From: a virus
Taxonomy: Duplodnaviria; Heunggongvirae; Uroviricota; Caudoviricetes
Strand: one strand, 5' to 3'
DNA length: 15,043 nt
IMG/VR virus record: IMGVR_UViG_2541047845_000008
Under the pieces are notes generated by a model. It had not been told where the DNA came from. It did not search any database and was given only the letters and a program-made list of their open reading frames with translations. This document shows positions 2,956 through 15,043 of the stretch, piece by piece. The stretch's first letter is position 1, and each line of letters begins with the position of its first letter. The position numbers and the translations under genes were made by a program.

Positions 2956-3243
2956 GCTTATTTTTCGTCAGATTATTTTTCAAAAAATTCCCGTGCATAA
3001 AAATTTGAGGAGGCGTTCGGTGTCCGGCAGGGACGGTTTCGTCCTGAAAACCACCCCCACCCCCTCTGACGGCCTCACCAGCGATTGCGAAAACATTCCA
3101 TGACCTCGCGGTCACGGTCGGTTAATCGCTTCGCTGTGGTGCGTTCTGTGCGCCCTGTCCTGTTGGCTTTGTGCCCTGTCTCCTGTGTCTTCCATGCGTC
3201 ATGCTGCCTTATCAGTCCACGAATCAGCCTGTTTTGTTCCTGT
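2956..3243. other. Putative cos / terminase recognition region
   Basis: The only sizeable non-coding gap (about 290 bp) inside the packaging module, between HNH and TerS, where HNH-dependent cos phages of the HK97 type place cos. Contains palindrome GGACG-GTTT-CGTCC (about 3031-3044), a C-rich tract CCACCCCCACCCCC (about 3052-3065), and two near-identical pyrimidine-rich direct repeats CTGTGCGCCCTGTCC / TGTGCCCTGTCTCC (about 3146-3185). Confidence 0.35.
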
Positions 3244-6138: not shown

Positions 6139-7308
6139 TTAATCGCCGTTTTTCATCTCGAGGACTTTTATCGCGCGGGAGTCAACAACCCCGCCGCCGA
6201 TGTATTTATCCGTGTGTACCTTGTAGAAGCCCGGCTCTGTAATGTTGTCCGGTCGGGTACGGATCCCCGTTTCATGGTCAACGATGAAATAACCGCGCTT
6301 AAAGTCACCGACAGCCAGCGGCGTTTTGCCTTTGCCGATGTCCGGCATACTTTCCAGGTAATAAACAGGACGGCCCAGCAATGTGTCAGGTGCGCCCTCT
6401 TTGAGGCTGTCACGCCATACGTAATCACCGCTCTGGTTTTTCAGCTTCTGCAATGCTGCCGCAGTGTTCGAGTTCATCACCCACACGGCGTTCTTACGGT
6501 ATTTCGCTTTCAGCTTGTAGAGGATGTCGATCAGTTCGTCCGCTGTAATGGCGTCGGTTGTTGTAACCATTTTTTCAATGGTGCCAAAGGCGCGGGCTTT
6601 GTCGTTGTTGGTATCACGGGTGTAATTCAGGAAACCCTTCGGCTTGCCAGTACCGTCACCATTTACAAAATCATCTTCTTCGGTCGTGGCGAACGTGTCG
6701 GCGATTTCAGACGATAACCAGCCCAGCACATCCACTTCTGAAAAATCCAGGATTTCCTGCGTGGTTTTCGGGTAGGCATAGATCGGGTTAAGTTTGATGC
6801 TTACGCGCTCAACTTTCGGGGTTTCTGTTTCGGTTCGCTTGTTGCCCTCAGTGCCACGCCCCACCGTTGCGCCACCTGTGGAAACCAGTTTCTGGTATTC
6901 GTTTGATTTCGCCGTTTTCACCGTCGCAATCATTCGCATGACGCTTTCATCACTCAGTAACCGCATAACCTCGCGATCAAGCTCAGGGATAACGGTATAA
7001 CCACCGTCCTTGCCGCCGTTGGTGGTGGTGGATAATGAGCGAACGTCACCCGTTACGATGTAGTTGCGAAGTTCTGCGGGGTCAGTGGTCTGGCTGGCTT
7101 TACCTGGCTTGCTGCGCTCTTCGTCGGCAACGGCTTCAAGGCGGGAAATGTCTTTATCGAGGGATTCAGCTTTAGCGCGTAATTCGTCAAATTTTGCGCC
7201 CTCGGCGTCGTTAAGGCTGCGGTTTTCTTTTTCCGCGTTCTCCAGCATGTCGCGCATCTGATTTTTGATGGCGGTTTTCTGCTGGCGCAATTCGATAATT
7301 CTCGGCAT
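6139..7308 (-). CDS. Major capsid protein, HK97 fold
   Basis: N-terminal coiled-coil delta-domain-like region (MPRIIELRQQKTAIKNQMRDMLENAEKENRSL...) followed by a capsid core. The ORF track extends to 7353 on a TTG; ATG at 7308 is the more likely start (389 aa). Confidence 0.9.
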   Translation of the reverse strand: MPRIIELRQQKTAIKNQMRDMLENAEKENRSLNDAEGAKFDELRAKAESLDKDISRLEAVADEERSKPGKASQTTDPAELRNYIVTGDVRSLSTTTNGGKDGGYTVIPELDREVMRLLSDESVMRMIATVKTAKSNEYQKLVSTGGATVGRGTEGNKRTETETPKVERVSIKLNPIYAYPKTTQEILDFSEVDVLGWLSSEIADTFATTEEDDFVNGDGTGKPKGFLNYTRDTNNDKARAFGTIEKMVTTTDAITADELIDILYKLKAKYRKNAVWVMNSNTAAALQKLKNQSGDYVWRDSLKEGAPDTLLGRPVYYLESMPDIGKGKTPLAVGDFKRGYFIVDHETGIRTRPDNITEPGFYKVHTDKYIGGGVVDSRAIKVLEMKNGD

Positions 7309-7558
7309 AAAAAAAAGTCCTGATGCAAAGAGGAAAACACCAGGACGCGGCAAGACTCACGGTACGAGAACAAAAAGAAATGCACACCGATGCAGGCTTC
7401 CCGCCTGTTAACGCTGATGAGATTAACAGGCGGGAAAATGGTCCCAGCGTCCTGGCAACAGTGGCGAGAATAACCACGGTTCGGGCCTGATAAAATAAGC
7501 CAGCCATGCCGCTGAACAACCACGAACAACCACGCACAAATAATTTACAAAAGCTGAC

Positions 7559-7584
7559 AAAAAAAGCCCTGGTTAAACCTGGGC
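7559..7584 (-). terminator. Rho-independent terminator after the replication/regulation segment
   Basis: Stem-loop GCCCTGG-TTAAA-CCTGGGC (one mismatch) followed on the minus strand by U7 (plus-strand A7 at 7559-7565), directly 3' of the gene ending at 7592. Confidence 0.5.
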
Positions 7585-7591
7585 TGGGCCA

Positions 7592-7852
7592 TTAATTAAC
7601 GTCTTCCGGTGGTACTGATTGCACTGTGCGGGGCTTCACCTTTTCCAGATATGCGATGAGCGCATCAATCTGTTCAGGACCAGCCGCCAGAATTTCACCG
7701 GAAAGCGTGCTGCGTAAAAAACCATGATGATCAACCCAGAATATCGCCCCCGCCGCCAGGTGCTGGCGATAACGCTCCGTTGTCGTGTGGGCCGGATGTT
7801 CAAGGCCGAATAATTCGCGGTGTCGTTTAATTTCCTCTGTGGTTACTGGCAT
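7592..7852 (-). CDS. Hypothetical protein (86 aa)
   Basis: ATG at 7852 with AGGGGG Shine-Dalgarno; overlaps the 3' end of the upstream PerC-like gene by 10 nt. No family recognised. Confidence 0.55.
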   Translation of the reverse strand: MPVTTEEIKRHRELFGLEHPAHTTTERYRQHLAAGAIFWVDHHGFLRSTLSGEILAAGPEQIDALIAYLEKVKPRTVQSVPPEDVN

Positions 7853-8100
7853 GTTTCCCCCTTTAATTTATCTAATCCCATTTCAGCATAAACACGATCA
7901 GCGGCTTTTTTAATATCGCTGAAATTGTCCGGCCCGAGTGCTGGCCTTGTCGATTTTCTGCAACATTCCAGCCGTCGCATCGTGATGTGCTCCCGTTCCT
8001 TGTCTGTCTCCACCAGTAGCATGACTTCACCCCATCGCGCCGACGCTCTCCGGTAAAAGCCTTTCGCCTCGAGTTCTTCCGCTATGCGGTCATGTACCAT
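7843..8100 (-). CDS. PerC-like transcriptional activator (85 aa)
   Basis: From ATG at 8100 (GAGGGTGA Shine-Dalgarno; the track's longer ORF starts on a GTG inside ssb). The motif MVHDRIAEELEAKGFYRRASARWGEVM ... C..C ... DNFSD ... MGL matches my recollection of PerC/Pch-family small activators. Not search-verified. Confidence 0.5.
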   Translation of the reverse strand: MVHDRIAEELEAKGFYRRASARWGEVMLLVETDKEREHITMRRLECCRKSTRPALGPDNFSDIKKAADRVYAEMGLDKLKGETCQ

Positions 8101-8775: not shown

Positions 8776-8823
8776 TTTTATTTTTACCCCCTCGTTTAAA
8801 AAGTTTTGAGTTGTGCCTCCCCT

Positions 8824-9050
8824 TGTCTACCTTATCTACCTTACTGGCTCTCATGCCAGTAATGGCGCGGCTTTCAGCGGGGTAGAGTGCTTTTATCCAC
8901 TATCTACCCCGTATCTACCTCCCTGTCTGATTCAGGTAAAATCAGGTAGAGAGGGTAGATAGTAGGTAGACAGTGAAAAAAGGCTGTCTACCTAAGTTAA
9001 TATACTGAATTAAATGTATTTTTCTTTACTCAGGTAGACAGGGTAGACAG
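8824..9050. repeat. Iteron array and AT-rich segment: putative replication origin
   Basis: Eleven copies of an octamer with core TCTACC / GGTAGA in a non-coding stretch just 3' of the primase gene. Forward copies (TGTCTACC or TATCTACC) at about 8824, 8833, 8901, 8912, 8985; inverted copies (GGTAGA-CA/TA/GA/GT) at about 8881, 8945, 8954, 8965, 9033, 9043. An AT-rich spacer (about 8994-9030) is flanked by inverted iterons. Confidence 0.7.
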
Positions 9051-9063
9051 CCATTGCAAAAAA

Positions 9064-10818
9064 TTATAAAAACGCGTCGCAATCGTCTGTTGTTATTGCG
9101 TTAGTCTGCGTTACTCCCTTAACTTTCCGCGTAATATATTCATGTCCGTAAACTTTCGCGGCTGGCTTCATAGCCTTGCCAAAGTCATTTACGTTTAGCG
9201 GTTTGCTCCTGCCTGCGTATGCCATAAACGCCAGATAGACGCGGTAAAGGCTGTTCCTGGTCGTGTACTTCACTGAATCGCCACCGCCCCCCATCATCAG
9301 GCCGCGCGCTTCCTCCAGAAAATTCAGGAACTGGCAAAACTCAATAACCGGATCCGTCTGTTGCTTTATTGCCAGTGCTTCATCACCGTCACGCTGTTCC
9401 AGTAGTAAAGCCCGTGCCTTCTCAGGGTCGGTAAAGTTCGCCAGCAATCGGCGGATAATGACAGGGATTTCAGCCGCAATCTTTTCCGGTAGCTCCCTGT
9501 CTTTTTCGGCCTCACTGACGATATTGTCGAAACGGAAAATTACGCGACGACGTGACACACCTCCGGCCCGTTCGGTGAATATCATCGGATTGTTATTGGT
9601 TGCCAGCACCACCGCCCTGATTACCGCCGTAAAACGCTTTTCATATTTCGGGTTAATTTCCACGGGGTCGCCGCCCGTGATTTTCTTGATGCCCGTTCCT
9701 TCGCCTGTATATTTCGGCTGGTCAGCCAGGACGATAAGACGACTCCCGACAACCTGCGCACGTCCACCAGCATCATCAAGCGATGTCATTTCAGCGCTTA
9801 CCGTGTTCTGTTTCCCTGCCAGAAGGCTGGCTATGTGCGTGAATGTACTTTTACCGCTCCCGCCATCTCCGGTGGCCTCAATAAACATCTGCCAGTCGTA
9901 CCGGTTCGCCATAATCATGTACAGCGCGGCACATATACGCATCATCTTGCGCGGGTCTTTTCCGGCTGCGTGCTCAAGCCATTTATGAAAGTTTGGCGCG
10001 TTATCGCGGATGTTCTCCCCTGGTGCTGGTGGCGTGTACTCAATGCCGTTGTGCGTGGTGATCCAGTTCTCCGGCGTGTGCGGGGAAAATTCCCCCGTTT
10101 TCAGGTCAAGCGCACCATTGGCGAACGGCAGCAAATCGCCGGACGGCTCGCCCATTGGTTCGGCAATAACTTTTAACGCTTCCACGGCGTTATTGATTAC
10201 GCGCTTGCTGAAAGTGGCCCTGTGCTCTGAATAGATCGCCACCATTTCGCGGCTAAGTTCCATTGTGCTGACCGGACACCATACCCCGCCGCGCCATACG
10301 TGAACGATTTCACTTTCAGGATGTACGCAAACGCCATCAAAGCGATCGGCAAGCAGCTGCGCGCGCTCACTGTCCGCCATCTGCGAAAGTTGCGCCTTTT
10401 GCTTTACCGGAAGCTCAATGACCAGACCATCAGAAAGATTCTGGCGCTCACGGGCCAGATATTCGCGCCAGTTCTCCACCTTCTGACCGTGCATACCCTC
10501 AGGATAAAAATTTGCATCCTGTACGCCTGCCGCCGCCAGCTTCTGGCCAATCGCCTTTATCATTACTGGCGCAAGATATCCGGCCCTGAATATGCGCACG
10601 GATTTTCTGCCTTCCGGCACAATTTGCAGCTTATCCAGTTCTGATAACTGCTGCTCCCCAAGCCACACAGGAGGCTCATTATCTCCGGCCATACGCGCAT
10701 CATGTTCCTGCCATTGTTTCGCGTGTGCCCAGGCATCACTACCCGCAAAAATAATGACTTCTGTTCCTTTGTGTTTTATGCCGCGTGACTGCTGTTTTAC
10801 GTTCGGTGCCAGTTTCAT
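9064..10818 (-). CDS. DNA primase/replicase, P4 alpha-like family
   Basis: 584 aa with Walker A GDGGSGKST and surrounding NTPase motifs; architecture resembles satellite primase-helicases. Its ATG overlaps the stop of the upstream small gene (ATGA). Confidence 0.85.
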   Translation of the reverse strand: MKLAPNVKQQSRGIKHKGTEVIIFAGSDAWAHAKQWQEHDARMAGDNEPPVWLGEQQLSELDKLQIVPEGRKSVRIFRAGYLAPVMIKAIGQKLAAAGVQDANFYPEGMHGQKVENWREYLARERQNLSDGLVIELPVKQKAQLSQMADSERAQLLADRFDGVCVHPESEIVHVWRGGVWCPVSTMELSREMVAIYSEHRATFSKRVINNAVEALKVIAEPMGEPSGDLLPFANGALDLKTGEFSPHTPENWITTHNGIEYTPPAPGENIRDNAPNFHKWLEHAAGKDPRKMMRICAALYMIMANRYDWQMFIEATGDGGSGKSTFTHIASLLAGKQNTVSAEMTSLDDAGGRAQVVGSRLIVLADQPKYTGEGTGIKKITGGDPVEINPKYEKRFTAVIRAVVLATNNNPMIFTERAGGVSRRRVIFRFDNIVSEAEKDRELPEKIAAEIPVIIRRLLANFTDPEKARALLLEQRDGDEALAIKQQTDPVIEFCQFLNFLEEARGLMMGGGGDSVKYTTRNSLYRVYLAFMAYAGRSKPLNVNDFGKAMKPAAKVYGHEYITRKVKGVTQTNAITTDDCDAFL

Positions 10819-11934: not shown

Positions 11935-12151
11935 GGTGCACCTCCTGCACATCAGCCATGATAATTTTTCCGGCCTTATCCAGTGCCTGATCGGCTTTTA
12001 GCTGCACAAATGCTAAATAATGGAAGATGCATTCTGATTCTCTGGCTGCGTGTTTATGCGCCCTGTCAGCAATAACAGAAATATCAATCAGCGCATGCAT
12101 TAGCGTTATGATGGCTTCGGCGGCTGCGTCCGGACGGGTGTTATTGCACAT
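11927..12151 (-). CDS. Hypothetical protein (74 aa)
   Basis: ATG with GGAGG Shine-Dalgarno; overlaps the downstream gene by 8 nt. No family recognised. Confidence 0.5.
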   Translation of the reverse strand: MCNNTRPDAAAEAIITLMHALIDISVIADRAHKHAARESECIFHYLAFVQLKADQALDKAGKIIMADVQEVHHA

Positions 12152-12347
12152 GGCACACCTCCTGACGAATACGGGCAGCGAATACCATCACGCAGCCAGC
12201 CGGGGATTGCTGGCGTGCTTCCTGTTCGCTGGTGGCCTCAATGGTAATCACGCGCGGTTGTGCCGTGCTCAGGGCGATAAAACGCCAGATGTATTTATTC
12301 AGGTTGTGCGAATCCCGCCCTTGCGGGTGTGTGGTATGATTTAACAT
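12141..12347 (-). CDS. Hypothetical protein (68 aa), first gene of the leftward operon
   Basis: Only the 3' 68 codons of the 354-aa track ORF are plausible: ATG at 12347 with GAGGT Shine-Dalgarno, just downstream of the predicted leftward promoter. The rest of that ORF runs antisense through the regulatory region. Confidence 0.4.
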   Translation of the reverse strand: MLNHTTHPQGRDSHNLNKYIWRFIALSTAQPRVITIEATSEQEARQQSPAGCVMVFAARIRQEVCHVQ

Positions 12348-12443
12348 AGCTACCTCGATACTTTCGCTATCGTTGGTGGTTAGAAGCCCCGTTACTGCTC
12401 CTACAGTGCGGGGTTTCGTCGTTTCTACACCTTGCCTTAATAA

Positions 12444-12497
12444 GGTGTTGAACACCAATTTAAATCGAGGTGTTAAACACGTCAAGTGTTGAACACT
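12444..12497. promoter_or_regulatory. Three palindromic operator-like sites in the divergent control region
   Basis: GGTGTT-G-AACACC (12444-12456, perfect), GGTGTT-A-AACAC (12469-12480) and AGTGTT-G-AACACT (12485-12497, perfect); centre-to-centre spacing about 25 and 16 bp, between the leftward operon and the rightward small regulator gene. Confidence 0.6.
12457..12485 (-). promoter_or_regulatory. Candidate sigma70 promoter of the leftward operon
   Basis: On the minus strand: TTGACG (-35, plus 12485-12480), 16-17 nt spacer, TTAAAT/TAAATT (-10, plus about 12463-12457). Operator sites overlap the -35, spacer and start region. A rightward candidate (TTGAAC at 12489-12494, 17 nt, CATACT) lies back to back. 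Confidence 0.4.
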
Positions 12498-12546
12498 TAT
12501 TTTTTTTCCTGCATACTGCATTTGTTTTTTATGAAGGGTGCTCAAC

Positions 12547-12726
12547 ATGGCGACAAAAGCAGTAAACGCAAAATCACAAACAGTTGCGGCAAGGGTTCCA
12601 CATGAAGTTATGAACAATGTTGAGGCGGTAAAAATGCCCGGCGAAAGTACAGGGCAGTTTGTTACAGCTGCATTAAAGCGGGAAGTTGAATACCGCCAGC
12701 GTCGCAAGGCCAAAGAATCAGAATAA
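12547..12726 (+). CDS. Small ribbon-helix-helix-like DNA-binding protein (putative island regulator)
   Basis: ATG at 12547 with AAGGG Shine-Dalgarno (the track starts on GTG at 12538). The pattern beta-strand (QTVAARVP), helix (HEVMNNVEAV), turn (KMPGES), helix (TGQFVTAALKREVEY), then a basic tail fits the RHH (Arc/CopG-like) fold. Encoded next to the operator array. Confidence 0.5.
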   Translation: MATKAVNAKSQTVAARVPHEVMNNVEAVKMPGESTGQFVTAALKREVEYRQRRKAKESE

Positions 12727-12783
12727 TCACTATCAGCGCCGTGGCGTGAGGTACTCCGGCGCATTGCTTTACAGGTCAGTACT

Positions 12784-12993
12784 ATGAGCAAAAAACACCG
12801 ATCAGCAGATGAGATTTTTGCAGAACAACGAAGATTGCTTTTGCAAAGTATCATTTCACGCCAGCAAGAGAAGGCGCGAGCTAAACAAATGCCACCAAAT
12901 ACAGAACCAGCGCCTACAAGATTTGCGCTTGATGACTTTCTCGATAAACACCCCAGGGTAATGAAAGCAAACAAAAACCGCCCACCAGGCTGA
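12784..12993 (+). CDS. Hypothetical protein (69 aa)
   Basis: ORF downstream of the RHH gene on the same strand, followed by a strong terminator. No family recognised. Confidence 0.4.
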   Translation: MSKKHRSADEIFAEQRRLLLQSIISRQQEKARAKQMPPNTEPAPTRFALDDFLDKHPRVMKANKNRPPG

Positions 12994-13088
12994 TCACATT
13001 GCCCACCAGCCTGATAGCGGCTATCATCCCCGTGCTTATGTTTGAGATCACACACACAAACGGCGCAGCGGGTTATCTGTTCAGAAAG

Positions 13089-13116
13089 GCGGCTCCATTT
13101 CGGGGCCGCTTTTTTT
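13089..13116 (+). terminator. Rho-independent terminator of the rightward regulatory transcript
   Basis: GC-rich stem GCGGCTCC / GGGGCCGC (8 bp including one G-U) with loop ATTTC, followed by T7 (13110-13116). Confidence 0.6.
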
Positions 13117-13262
13117 ATTCCTGAAAAACCCCAATTTTGTTGTTTTTCAGTTTCACCAGGGCGAACGAATCCCCGCCCACGTTCTGGCGTATATTCAATC
13201 TTCATGGTTATAGCTCTGTGTTCAGATGATTGATGTGTGGCGGCTGCGTGCCGCCAGCGTGA

Positions 13263-13451
13263 TTAATGAACTGCCTTGCAGCTATCCTTCCAGGCCAGAA
13301 CCTCGGATAAAGACCAGCCAACGGAACGACCGCCAAGTTTACGACGTGATGGGAATTGTCCGGCCTTTTCCAGGCGGTAGCGACACGTACGGCTAAGGCC
13401 GGTTAGTTTTTCGCATTCTTTTTCACGTATAAACCGATCAGTGCTTAACAC
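13263..13451 (-). CDS. alpA: AlpA-family transcriptional regulator / excisionase-like protein
   Basis: 62 aa; motif EKLTGLSRTCRYRLEKAGQFPSRRKLGGRSVGWSLSEVLAW is the characteristic AlpA helix-turn-helix signature. GTG start with AAGGGGG Shine-Dalgarno; directly downstream of int. Confidence 0.85.
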   Translation of the reverse strand: MLSTDRFIREKECEKLTGLSRTCRYRLEKAGQFPSRRKLGGRSVGWSLSEVLAWKDSCKAVH

Positions 13452-13825: not shown

Positions 13826-15043
13826 TTATTTTCTTCTGGCTACTGGTAGCGTGGTTACGTTTTCATGTGTTCCCGCCAGTATCCCTAACCGCTCCGTCCA
13901 CATATCCAGCGCATTGCGTTTAGCATCCAGATAACGGGAATGATTATAAACTCGCTGCATTCCTGGCATCTGGTGGCCTGTAAGCTGCTCCACGACATGC
14001 GGATCAACGCCTAAATCGTTCAGCATGGTTGTAAAGGTGCGCCGGATGTCATGCAGTGACCAGTGAGGGTGATTAAGCCTCCTGTGCACTAATCTGCCGT
14101 ACTGCGATACGCTGGCCTCCTGTTTCACTTCCCCCAGCAATAAGCCCGTGTGCCTGTTCTGCTCCACCAGCTGCGTGACGAACGGCAGGATCGCTTCCGG
14201 TATGGGCCGGAATATTGCGACCTTCGTTTTGCTGTGCTCCTTCGGAACGGTCCATAGCATTTCCGTAAAATCCCACTCCCCGATCTCCGATAACCTCAGT
14301 TCTACCGTTCTGGCTCCGAAGACAATCAGGAGGCGGATTAACGCGACGTAGTAAGGGGAAAATATTTTTTTGTCCAGTGCCTGCAATAATTCGCCAAGTT
14401 CTTTGTTACTTAAGACACGTTCGCTTATATCCGGTTTTTTCCCAACGTCCGCCACGTTCAGATCGTCCAGAACGTTGCTGATTGCATAGCGCCGCCTACG
14501 GCAAAACTTAAGCGCCTGTTTGCACGCCTGTAGCACGAATCCGGCAGTAACAGGCGTTCGCTTTGCCACCTGGTCAAAACAGGCCAGCCAGTGCCGTAGC
14601 TCGCATTTATCCAGCGGCATAGCACCAATCTGCTGTATTACGTGATTATTAAGTCGCCTTTTCAGGGCGATATAATCCACGCGGTTTTCCTTTACGTAAT
14701 ACTCAAGCCAGTAGGTGAGCGCATCGCCAACCGTTACCGGCTTTAACGCTTCCTGTACGGTGTAATTAAGCTCATGACGTGGATTTTTCCCCTCTGCCAG
14801 CCATGCGCGACACTGGGCGGCTTTTTCCCTGGCTGATTTCAGGCTCAGATCAGGATAATTTCCCAGCTTAATGCGTTCCGGTGGTGCCCCCCTTCCCGTT
14901 CCGGCCCTGTAAGTGAAATACCAGGTCAATTTCCCTGATGTTAAATATTTCACGCTCAGGTTTCCGCCATCACTATAAAACGTGTTTTTCTCCGCTGGCT
15001 TACCATGAAGTTTCCTTAGCAAGGTATCGCTCAGTTTGTTCAT
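13826..15043 (-). CDS. int: Tyrosine recombinase, P4-type integrase
   Basis: 405 aa; N-terminal arm-binding-like region, core-binding domain, and catalytic C-terminus with R ... HDIRRT ... and YNHSRYLD (catalytic Tyr region). Its ATG is the last three bases of the window, so its upstream region and the adjacent att site are outside the window. Confidence 0.95.
   Translation of the reverse strand: MNKLSDTLLRKLHGKPAEKNTFYSDGGNLSVKYLTSGKLTWYFTYRAGTGRGAPPERIKLGNYPDLSLKSAREKAAQCRAWLAEGKNPRHELNYTVQEALKPVTVGDALTYWLEYYVKENRVDYIALKRRLNNHVIQQIGAMPLDKCELRHWLACFDQVAKRTPVTAGFVLQACKQALKFCRRRRYAISNVLDDLNVADVGKKPDISERVLSNKELGELLQALDKKIFSPYYVALIRLLIVFGARTVELRLSEIGEWDFTEMLWTVPKEHSKTKVAIFRPIPEAILPFVTQLVEQNRHTGLLLGEVKQEASVSQYGRLVHRRLNHPHWSLHDIRRTFTTMLNDLGVDPHVVEQLTGHQMPGMQRVYNHSRYLDAKRNALDMWTERLGILAGTHENVTTLPVARRK

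Follow-up and report, generated by a model that had tools for sequence, protein, structure and literature searches.

What decides when a phage satellite that builds its own capsids begins to make them? The question is raised by a 283-bp gap directly upstream of the major capsid protein gene in the 15,043-nt DNA of IMG/VR record IMGVR_UViG_2541047845_000008 (the window, by which we mean the whole stretch at its full length), which is a capsid-forming phage-inducible chromosomal island (cf-PICI). Such satellites build their own capsids, steal only tails and transfer between species. No description of the timing of cf-PICI capsid synthesis was found in the searchable literature, and searches for work on transcription of the cf-PICI packaging module, or on small RNAs (sRNAs) of Sp7, a prophage annotation of one such element, returned nothing relevant. 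The 283-bp gap is real and strongly conserved as a unit of cis-regulation for the cf-PICI packaging operon, and apparently not previously described. We lean, by a modest degree, towards reading it as two-level control of the head and packaging operon, in which a promoter is followed by a bistable leader that gates capsid synthesis; the leader most likely acts through a terminator-like hairpin that buries the Shine-Dalgarno (SD) sequence and through a long-range pairing, and the region probably decides the timing of the satellite's own capsid production.

The region, which runs from a small open reading frame (ORF) of 86 aa to the capsid gene, contains the following features in order of transcription; stem-loops are abbreviated SL and minimum free energy MFE.

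7559-7585, minus strand: T0, a terminator-like hairpin (7585-7565) followed by T7, just after the 86-aa ORF (-10.9 kcal/mol, then U7)
7536-7552, minus strand: conserved box TTTTGTAAATTATTTGT, about -92 to -76 from the predicted start
7543-7534 / 7533-7524 / 7523-7514, minus strand: repeats R0, R1 and R2, phased by 10 bp, about -83 to -54; R0 is the end of the box
7467-7494, minus strand: P_cap, a sigma70 promoter predicted from conservation (-35 TTTATC at 7494-7489, 16-bp spacer, -10 TATTCT at 7472-7467)
7436-7460, minus strand: SL1, the 5'-terminal hairpin, with CCAG/CUGG inner stem (7455-7452 / 7447-7444) and GACG loop (7451-7448), from folding and covariation
7400-7434, minus strand: SL2, a perfect 12-bp stem CCCGCCTGTTAA/TTAACAGGCGGG (-23.8 kcal/mol, z = -7.75, 0/200 shuffles as stable)
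7349-7399, minus strand: linker, mostly unpaired in MFE folds and pyrimidine-rich (C-rich of CCCUCC type in most relatives)
7309-7346, minus strand: SL3 (7346-7317; 10-bp stem, -15.4 kcal/mol, z = -5.8) and U8 (7316-7309), abutting the capsid AUG at 7308-7306
7340-7348, minus strand: segment c, GCGUCCUGG, part of the SL3 5' arm and complementary to the SL1 5' arm plus loop, CCAGGACGC (7455-7447)

The comparison covered more than 170 related loci. Those collected were 80 loci of capsid homologs in GTDB genomes, 80 in IMG/VR and 78 more through a scan with the SL1 sequence only. By blastn, the spacer upstream of the capsid gene is kept at about 74% identity in about 360 E. coli genomes including O157:H7, where the copy in strain Sakai is the one annotated as prophage Sp7, and more divergent E. 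coli cf-PICIs match over the first ~50 nt of the spacer. The order of modules (terminator, box, three 10-bp-phased repeats, promoter hexamers, SL1, SL2, C-rich unpaired linker, SL3, ATG) is constant in 32 leaders from at least 12 genera, in the 80 IMG/VR loci and in 74 of 74 contigs found via SL1 alone, and about a third of loci carry in addition a strong GC hairpin with a T-run (T1) between the repeats and the promoter hexamers. Distances are held as well: box to SL1 measures 92-94 nt at every locus, the capsid homolog starts 120-146 nt downstream of SL1 in all 74 SL1-containing contigs, and SL3 lies 3-9 nt from the ATG across aligned loci. The leaders fall into class A, that of the window (E. 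coli/Shigella), a larger class B, and a third class of unrelated sequence in Xenorhabdus/Photorhabdus. Bona fide phages lack the region, in that INPHARED returned three matches only, of which the one inspected, vB_KppS-Ant, is a packaged genome of cf-PICI size. No Rfam family matched anywhere in the whole window at the gathering threshold, and the region itself gave chance-level matches only, at E <= 10.

RNA from positions 7600-7300 of the window folds better than 100 of 100 shuffled sequences (z = -3.98), and the leader, about 150 nt long, consists of SL1, SL2, the linker and SL3. SL1 is weak in the window (-6.7 kcal/mol), where its outer stem is degenerate; across 29 class B leaders it is 100% paired, with three of nine pairs covarying and the GACG loop invariant. 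SL2, already recognised in the original prediction as a perfect 12-bp-stem hairpin, is present exactly as described there, and when loci are compared, compensatory double changes are seen at 8 of 10 basal pairs, a count that none of 500 shuffles reaches. It follows SL1 after only 0-2 nt, and its interior and length are highly variable. Both hairpins were recovered unaided by RNAalifold, with compensatory change at 12 of 14 pairs. When the structure SL1 + SL2 + SL3 was specified by hand for the 29 class B leaders, it was 96% paired, against about 40% in slid controls, and 11 pairs showed double changes (0/500 shuffles). Class A leaders, where more covariation was sought, barely vary in SL1 and SL3. 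The linker is conserved in composition but not in sequence.

The last hairpin, SL3, is conserved in 361 E. coli genomes. The original prediction had correctly placed a hairpin and a T8 run directly against the capsid start codon; its description as weak does not fit the stem length and stability listed above. Nor does its statement that the gene has no recognisable SD hold, as a weak SD-like AGGA lies at 7321-7318, 9 nt from the AUG and inside the 3' arm of SL3, and a GGA at -12 to -10 is found within this arm in both leader classes A and B. Between the two classes SL3 is replaced wholesale, with its position and the GGA in its 3' arm kept. A tract of U7-8 follows SL3 in class A and is absent from class B. 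With a stable GC-rich hairpin preceding a U-tract of 7-8 nt, SL3 and U8 have the canonical form of an intrinsic terminator and would be predicted to act as one. The buried SD, the terminator-like nature of this hairpin and its alternative pairing with SL1 had all been overlooked.

This alternative pairing is the feature on which a switch would turn. Segment c, by pairing with SL1, is proposed to serve as an anti-terminator and anti-sequestor. Complementarity of the SL1 loop and flank to the SL3 5' arm was present at every locus examined (AGACGUGAG with UUCACGUCU in class B). In class B the long-range helix is 97% paired and includes one U->G / A->C covarying pair, in which a change of SL1 from CUCA/UGAG to CUCC/GGAG is accompanied by A to C in its SL3 partner, otherwise a mere bulge base of SL3. 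The longest Watson-Crick duplex between SL1 and SL3 was compared with shuffled sequences: it measures 9 bp in the window (14/5000 shuffles reach it), 9 bp in L084, of the O157 type (5/5000), and 8 bp in L009 of class B (49/5000), and non-cognate SL1/SL3 pairs, for which shuffles are not applicable, form 4-5 bp. In the third class, the MFE fold itself pairs a 5'-proximal segment with the 5' arm of the hairpin at the ribosome-binding site (RBS), so that the SD-bearing arm is free. The MFE structure is SL1, SL2, unpaired linker and SL3 in 16 of 17 leaders, and in the relatives the SL1 + SL3 state is ahead by 2-13 kcal/mol; in the window, the long-range fold is the MFE (-60.2 vs -59.0 kcal/mol) and the two states are near-isoenergetic. 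A helix that excludes SL3 by engaging its 5' arm is thus found computationally, and its recurrence in three sequence-unrelated classes suggests a bistable attenuator-like switch.

As to what such a switch might sense, the Rfam search yielded no aptamer and co-variation tests of candidate proteins yielded no co-varying protein. No conserved ORF was noticed in the leader, though no systematic search for one was made, and the sole in-frame extension seen in the window begins at a TTG at 7353 on the minus strand. This TTG would extend the capsid ORF by 15 codons (7353-7309) across SL3 and U8; it is probably unused, and through it ORF callers can place the capsid start wrongly.

Upstream of the leader, the promoter was predicted by comparison. 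Among the 32 aligned leaders, TATnnT columns are invariant and are preceded 16 bp upstream by an invariant TT(T) that opens a TTTAC(A)-like hexamer. TAnnnT stands exactly 11 nt before the SL1 inner stem in every one of 96 distinct regions, and the -35 hexamer is TTTACT, TTTACA or TTTTCT in most of them. Hexamers at -35 and -10 with a spacer in the 16-18 bp range are hence conserved in register, and transcription is predicted to start at about 7462-7459, the base of SL1. The original prediction's view that no obvious sigma70 promoter exists holds for a consensus scan; the comparative data show a conserved, if weak, TTTATC-16-TATTCT. In L287 (E. coli JNEC-KY176, NZ_AP045172.1 609407-610378) the box and repeats are swapped for unrelated DNA, and TTGCGA-16-TATAAT stands in the same register before SL1. 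This locus appears as a natural 'constitutive promoter' allele of near-consensus sequence.

The box is near-invariant across at least 12 genera and occurs once in the window. R1 and R2 form the tandem 10-bp repeat that had been noted earlier, as two exact copies of GTGGTTGTTC at 7514-7533 (GAACAACCAC on the plus strand); R0 co-varies with both across loci. What is invariant among elements is not the sequence of the repeats but their 10-bp phasing and the placement of TT (T30/T40, alignment). A third near-copy of the repeat, GTGGTTATTC, with one mismatch, lies at 7468-7477 on the minus strand, overlapping the predicted -10 hexamer, and in other classes a conserved CATGTATAT around the -10 resembles the repeat unit of those classes, CATGTTTAC; a protein that binds the repeats could therefore also touch the -10. 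At 7536-7550 (minus strand) the box contains GTAAATTATTTGTnC, in which a near-invariant G and C lie exactly 14 bp apart in the alignment. Judged against a Fis consensus with G at -7 and C at +7 around an AT-rich core, it would fit as a candidate site for host Fis. Hairpins equivalent to T0 are present in class A relatives.

These observations, all made in silico (conservation, promoter signature, covariation of SL1 and SL2, SL1:SL3 complementarity and energetics), can be assembled into a working model. T0 would stop transcripts arriving from the upstream early and replication operon, and RNA synthesis would begin afresh from P_cap, a weak sigma70 promoter, at the base of SL1; this start, like termination at SL3, we infer. 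The box and repeats, between about -92 and -54, are probably either a binding site for an activator or an architectural protein or a stretch of curved DNA, and would thereby boost P_cap. SL3 would hide the weak SD (GGA at -12 to -10), and since U8 follows it in the window's class, it should end transcription before the AUG as well as block ribosomes. Were the SL1 5' arm and GACG loop to pair with the SL3 5' arm instead, SL3 would be dissolved, termination prevented and the SD freed; because this long-range helix would undo SL3, the leader would constitute a bistable attenuator-like switch. In the four-segment logic of attenuators, SL1 would be the anti-antiterminator, its pairing with segment c the antiterminator, and SL3 the terminator and sequestor. 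Switching in vivo and the direction of regulation, too, we infer.

Known systems offer partial parallels to this scheme. The trp and pyrBI attenuators and the SD-sequestering riboswitches likewise use mutually exclusive helices, in which the 5' arm of the terminator or sequestor is contested by a segment further upstream, and a single hairpin can be both terminator and SD sequestor. Unlike them, the leader lacks a recognisable aptamer (SL2 varies internally, and nothing in Rfam matches) and no leader peptide was noticed, in line with the unsystematic look for ORFs described above; its competing segment also lies in a 5'-terminal hairpin about 100 nt upstream. In the leader of the MS2 maturation gene, as here, ribosome access is set by a long-distance interaction between the RBS region and sequence near the 5' end of the transcript, but there the long-range pairing closes the RBS, whereas here it is predicted to open it, and in a DNA element with its own promoter.

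Several results weigh against this model. P_cap is weak in the window, with 3/6 and 4/6 consensus matches and no call from a consensus scan, its assignment rests on conservation, and the literature searched gave no mapped transcription start; a strict scan finds an upstream terminator in 44 of 96 regions. SL3 shows no internal covariation within either class, and its reality therefore rests on its conservation, its stability and its replacement from class to class. The strand test gives weak support for the assigned strand, with G-U pairs outnumbering A-C by 12 to 6. In class B, SL3 is not followed by a U-tract, which rules out termination as the general mechanism. The single covarying pair of the class B long-range helix is a count that 139 of 500 shuffles reach. 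Finally, the long-range state is 6-8 kcal/mol less stable in most relatives and would therefore need a factor, of which none was identified.

The relevant genes of the island lie on the minus strand throughout:

13826-15043, minus strand: integrase
13263-13451, minus strand: AlpA, 62 aa (PF05930, E = 5e-17)
9064-10818, minus strand: D5-type primase
after the iteron gap and before PerC in transcription order, minus strand: SSB gene
about 7843-8100, minus strand: PerC (PF06069), one gene further up than the 86-aa ORF
7592-7852, minus strand: 86-aa ORF, phrog_1957, the first gene upstream of the 283-bp gap
6139-7308, minus strand: HK97-type major capsid protein gene (PF05065, Pfam E = 4.9e-72), first of the head/packaging operon, with its ATG at 7308-7306

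The original prediction took the region for an activator-dependent late promoter or leader and named a PerC-like protein, said to be encoded just upstream, as the candidate activator. Its core survives as a dedicated promoter-leader unit, conserved in all related elements examined, and dependence on some activator is compatible with a weak promoter preceded by phased elements. The attribution to PerC does not survive: the immediate neighbour is the 86-aa ORF, with PerC the next gene up, and PerC does not co-occur with the region, its homologs being confined to E. coli/Shigella elements when box, repeats, promoter and leader are found in at least 12 other genera without it. Among PICIs that lack capsid genes, PerC-like genes are common as well (PMC11773190). 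PerC, a candidate driven by annotation, was accordingly rejected as cognate activator and reader of the repeats, and attention moves off it, though it may be an E. coli-specific modulator.

Other proteins fared no better as readers of the repeats. The 86-aa protein has 106 homologs, all annotated as hypothetical, and is encoded upstream in most genera; it was rejected because its Mantel r with repeat sequence, at 0.05 and 0.24, was similar to that of the capsid control (0.21), and its AlphaFold2 model (pLDDT 89.4) had no fold match in a structure search. Its ORF is absent from some class A elements, among them the E. coli loci L281-L285, where PerC lies directly upstream of the leader, so that gene content upstream of the leader varies even within one class. 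AlpA gave the highest Mantel correlation (r = 0.48), but the window, L001 and L088 have identical repeats with three different AlpA subtypes; AlpA was rejected for this reason, and its correlation reflects clade structure. Relative to L001 and L088, whose capsid leaders are identical to the window's, the AlpA gene (13263-13451 in the window) differs in subtype and the accessory genes between integrase and primase differ as well, which marks the early module as mosaic relative to the packaging module. Presence or absence of protein families showed no one-to-one mapping onto repeat type. Since no factor is assignable, whatever reads the repeats may do so with low specificity, or their role may be that of phased curved DNA.

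The alternatives to a gating leader differ mainly in how much they leave to the promoter. It is unlikely, though not negligibly so, that the region is an activator-dependent late promoter only, with PerC, AlpA or the 86-aa protein acting at the repeats and the hairpins merely stabilising or insulating the mRNA. A 5'-terminal stem-loop is a classic mRNA stabiliser, and SL1 could serve as one; the -35 is weak, and the phased repeats occupy a class-I-like position. The P4 promoters Psid and PLL (activated by Ogr, Delta and Cox) and operon I of SaPIs (activated by helper LtrC) similarly are dedicated capsid or packaging promoters with a poor -35 and upstream protein-binding repeats, although the present region lacks their TGT-N12-ACA dyad and adds a structured leader. 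Overexpression of alpA alone drives reproduction of EcCIEDL933, where it is used for particle purification (10.1101/2025.02.11.637232); this speaks for control by the promoter, and it sets cf-PICIs apart from P4 and SaPIs in that capsid production is possible without a helper. Yet most elements carrying the region have no PerC, identical repeats accompany three AlpA subtypes, variation in the repeats does not follow that of the 86-aa protein, and repeat type corresponds to no protein family; moreover, a promoter alone leaves unexplained both the SL1:SL3 complementarity in three unrelated classes and a terminator-like hairpin placed on the SD. At the other extreme, the region might have no function of its own, capsid being expressed by read-through from the upstream operon and the hairpins being leaky terminators or processing sites. 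The weakness of P_cap, predicted from sequence, and the detection of upstream terminators in fewer than half of the regions fit this idea, which is nonetheless very improbable: promoter hexamers stand at a fixed offset in all 96 regions, L287 has a consensus promoter in register, box-to-SL1 spacing is fixed, and strong purifying selection across genera with covariation is not expected of a mere spacer.

Three further readings assign the leader a role other than gating. In one, modelled on phage HK022 put RNA, which promotes terminator read-through in cis by binding the zinc-binding domain of the RNA polymerase beta' subunit, and decidedly unlikely in our estimate, SL1 and SL2 would bind RNA polymerase and let transcripts from P_cap alone read through SL3-U8 and later terminators of the operon. 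The layout does resemble putL, with two stem-loops at the start of the transcript before terminators (PMC9378689), in a phage-related element with HK97-like head genes; SL1 is nearly invariant across genera, as for a conserved host target such as RNA polymerase, and only 0-2 nt separate it from SL2. Against this, put RNA is about 70 nt long with put-specific sequence and structure, and the leader shares with putR nothing in sequence or detailed structure beyond having two hairpins, a comparison that rests on putR, as the fold of the putL region probably missed putL itself; SL2 is highly variable in interior and length, and class B has no terminator after SL3. Less probable again, though a little ahead of the functionless spacer, is an sRNA gene in the window's class, whose stable, trans-acting RNA of ~150 nt would run from P_cap to SL3-U8, with capsid made by occasional read-through. 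A promoter with a strong terminator-like hairpin and U8 would indeed give a discrete product of that length, stable 5' and 3' hairpins are typical of sRNAs, and lambda 6S or StxS RNA from PR'-tR' would be analogous; however, class B and the third class share the leader logic without a U-tract, and the fixed distance of the leader from the capsid ATG argues for a role in cis. Antitermination of Q type, in which a factor would load on RNA polymerase at the box and repeats and carry it past the downstream terminator or terminators, is the most remote of the readings. The terminator-like T1 hairpin, present in about a third of loci after the box and repeats, would suit it, as does the binding of 21Q to direct repeats (PMC6606751). 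As at lambda PR'-qut-tR' (6S RNA, StxS; Q), moreover, a late structural operon is preceded by a dedicated promoter and a short leader with an intrinsic terminator at its end, an arrangement under which late genes need read-through. But the elements for Q and for AlpA(Pae) of Pseudomonas sit between -35 and -10 with a -10-like pause downstream. In the present region the repeats are found further up than the -35, the stretch from -35 to -10 holds no binding element, and a -10-like pause site is not evident; the terminator abuts the start codon, and an RNA-RNA alternative pairing exists. No Q-like protein or Q gene was found among the ORFs scanned, and the island's AlpA, a 62-aa PF05930 protein, shares only its name with the Pseudomonas AlpA, which is 21Q-like and exceeds 140 aa. 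Antitermination of the Q/AlpA type was rejected on the misfit of element order.

Returning to the bistable leader, a more specific version of it can be entertained, although we consider it rather doubtful. SL1 might dock a factor that reports helper infection or satellite replication, and whose binding would flip the SL1:SL3 balance and license capsids only when tails are available, the leader then representing a satellite-specific RNA family. In that version the docking factor could be an sRNA, a protein of the helper or of the satellite, or, as for put, RNA polymerase itself, and, if true, it would be the first RNA-level checkpoint described in the life cycle of a phage satellite. On the gating model itself, the region, which occurs in hundreds of elements throughout the Enterobacterales, including O157:H7 Sp7/EcCIEDL933, would be a compact control element linking termination to ribosome access. 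Such a switch, if real, would explain the silence of the satellite in the lysogen and its commitment to particle production, would add a cis-regulatory RNA family to Rfam, which holds none, and would offer a handle for engineering cf-PICI-based delivery particles.

The assignment of the window to the cf-PICIs follows from its gene set. A cf-PICI was taken to have int, alpA and primase/rep with its own capsid, protease, portal, connectors and HNH-TerS-TerL, no tail or lysis genes, and a length of about 10-16 kb. The window encodes int, AlpA, primase, SSB, PerC, capsid, protease, portal, connectors, HNH, TerS and TerL, and the genes after capsid in transcription order are prohead protease, portal, connectors, HNH, TerS and TerL; tail and lysis genes are absent, and an identical element of ~15 kb lies between gcd and hpt in E. 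coli SB0258h1. This is the gene set of a cf-PICI, and the O157 relative is of the published EcCIEDL933 type (10.1101/2022.09.08.507074).

Two other roles for the 283-bp gap were considered and rejected, and in each case the function maps elsewhere. At least 12 copies of an iteron GTCTACC/GGTAGAC, in both orientations, occupy positions 8820-9050 of the window, just downstream of the primase gene; this cluster is very probably the replication origin of the island, and the gap was set aside as an origin on that ground. As a cos site it was rejected because the genome ends of vB_KppS-Ant, a packaged relative of 16.5 kb, fall upstream of terS, with the leader internal. The corresponding gap between HNH and terS in the window (2956-3243), to which those ends map, is for this reason the likely cos site, and it carries a direct repeat CTGTGCGCCCTGTC / CTTTGTGCCCTGTC at 3146-3180. 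A further stretch, at 12141-13205 on the minus strand, is read as a Cys-rich ORF of 354 aa with an implausible composition; a family of ORFs with a likewise implausible composition recurs in nearly all IMG/VR relatives, where it lies ~4.3 kb upstream of capsid, and the stretch may be conserved non-coding DNA or a set of mis-called frames.

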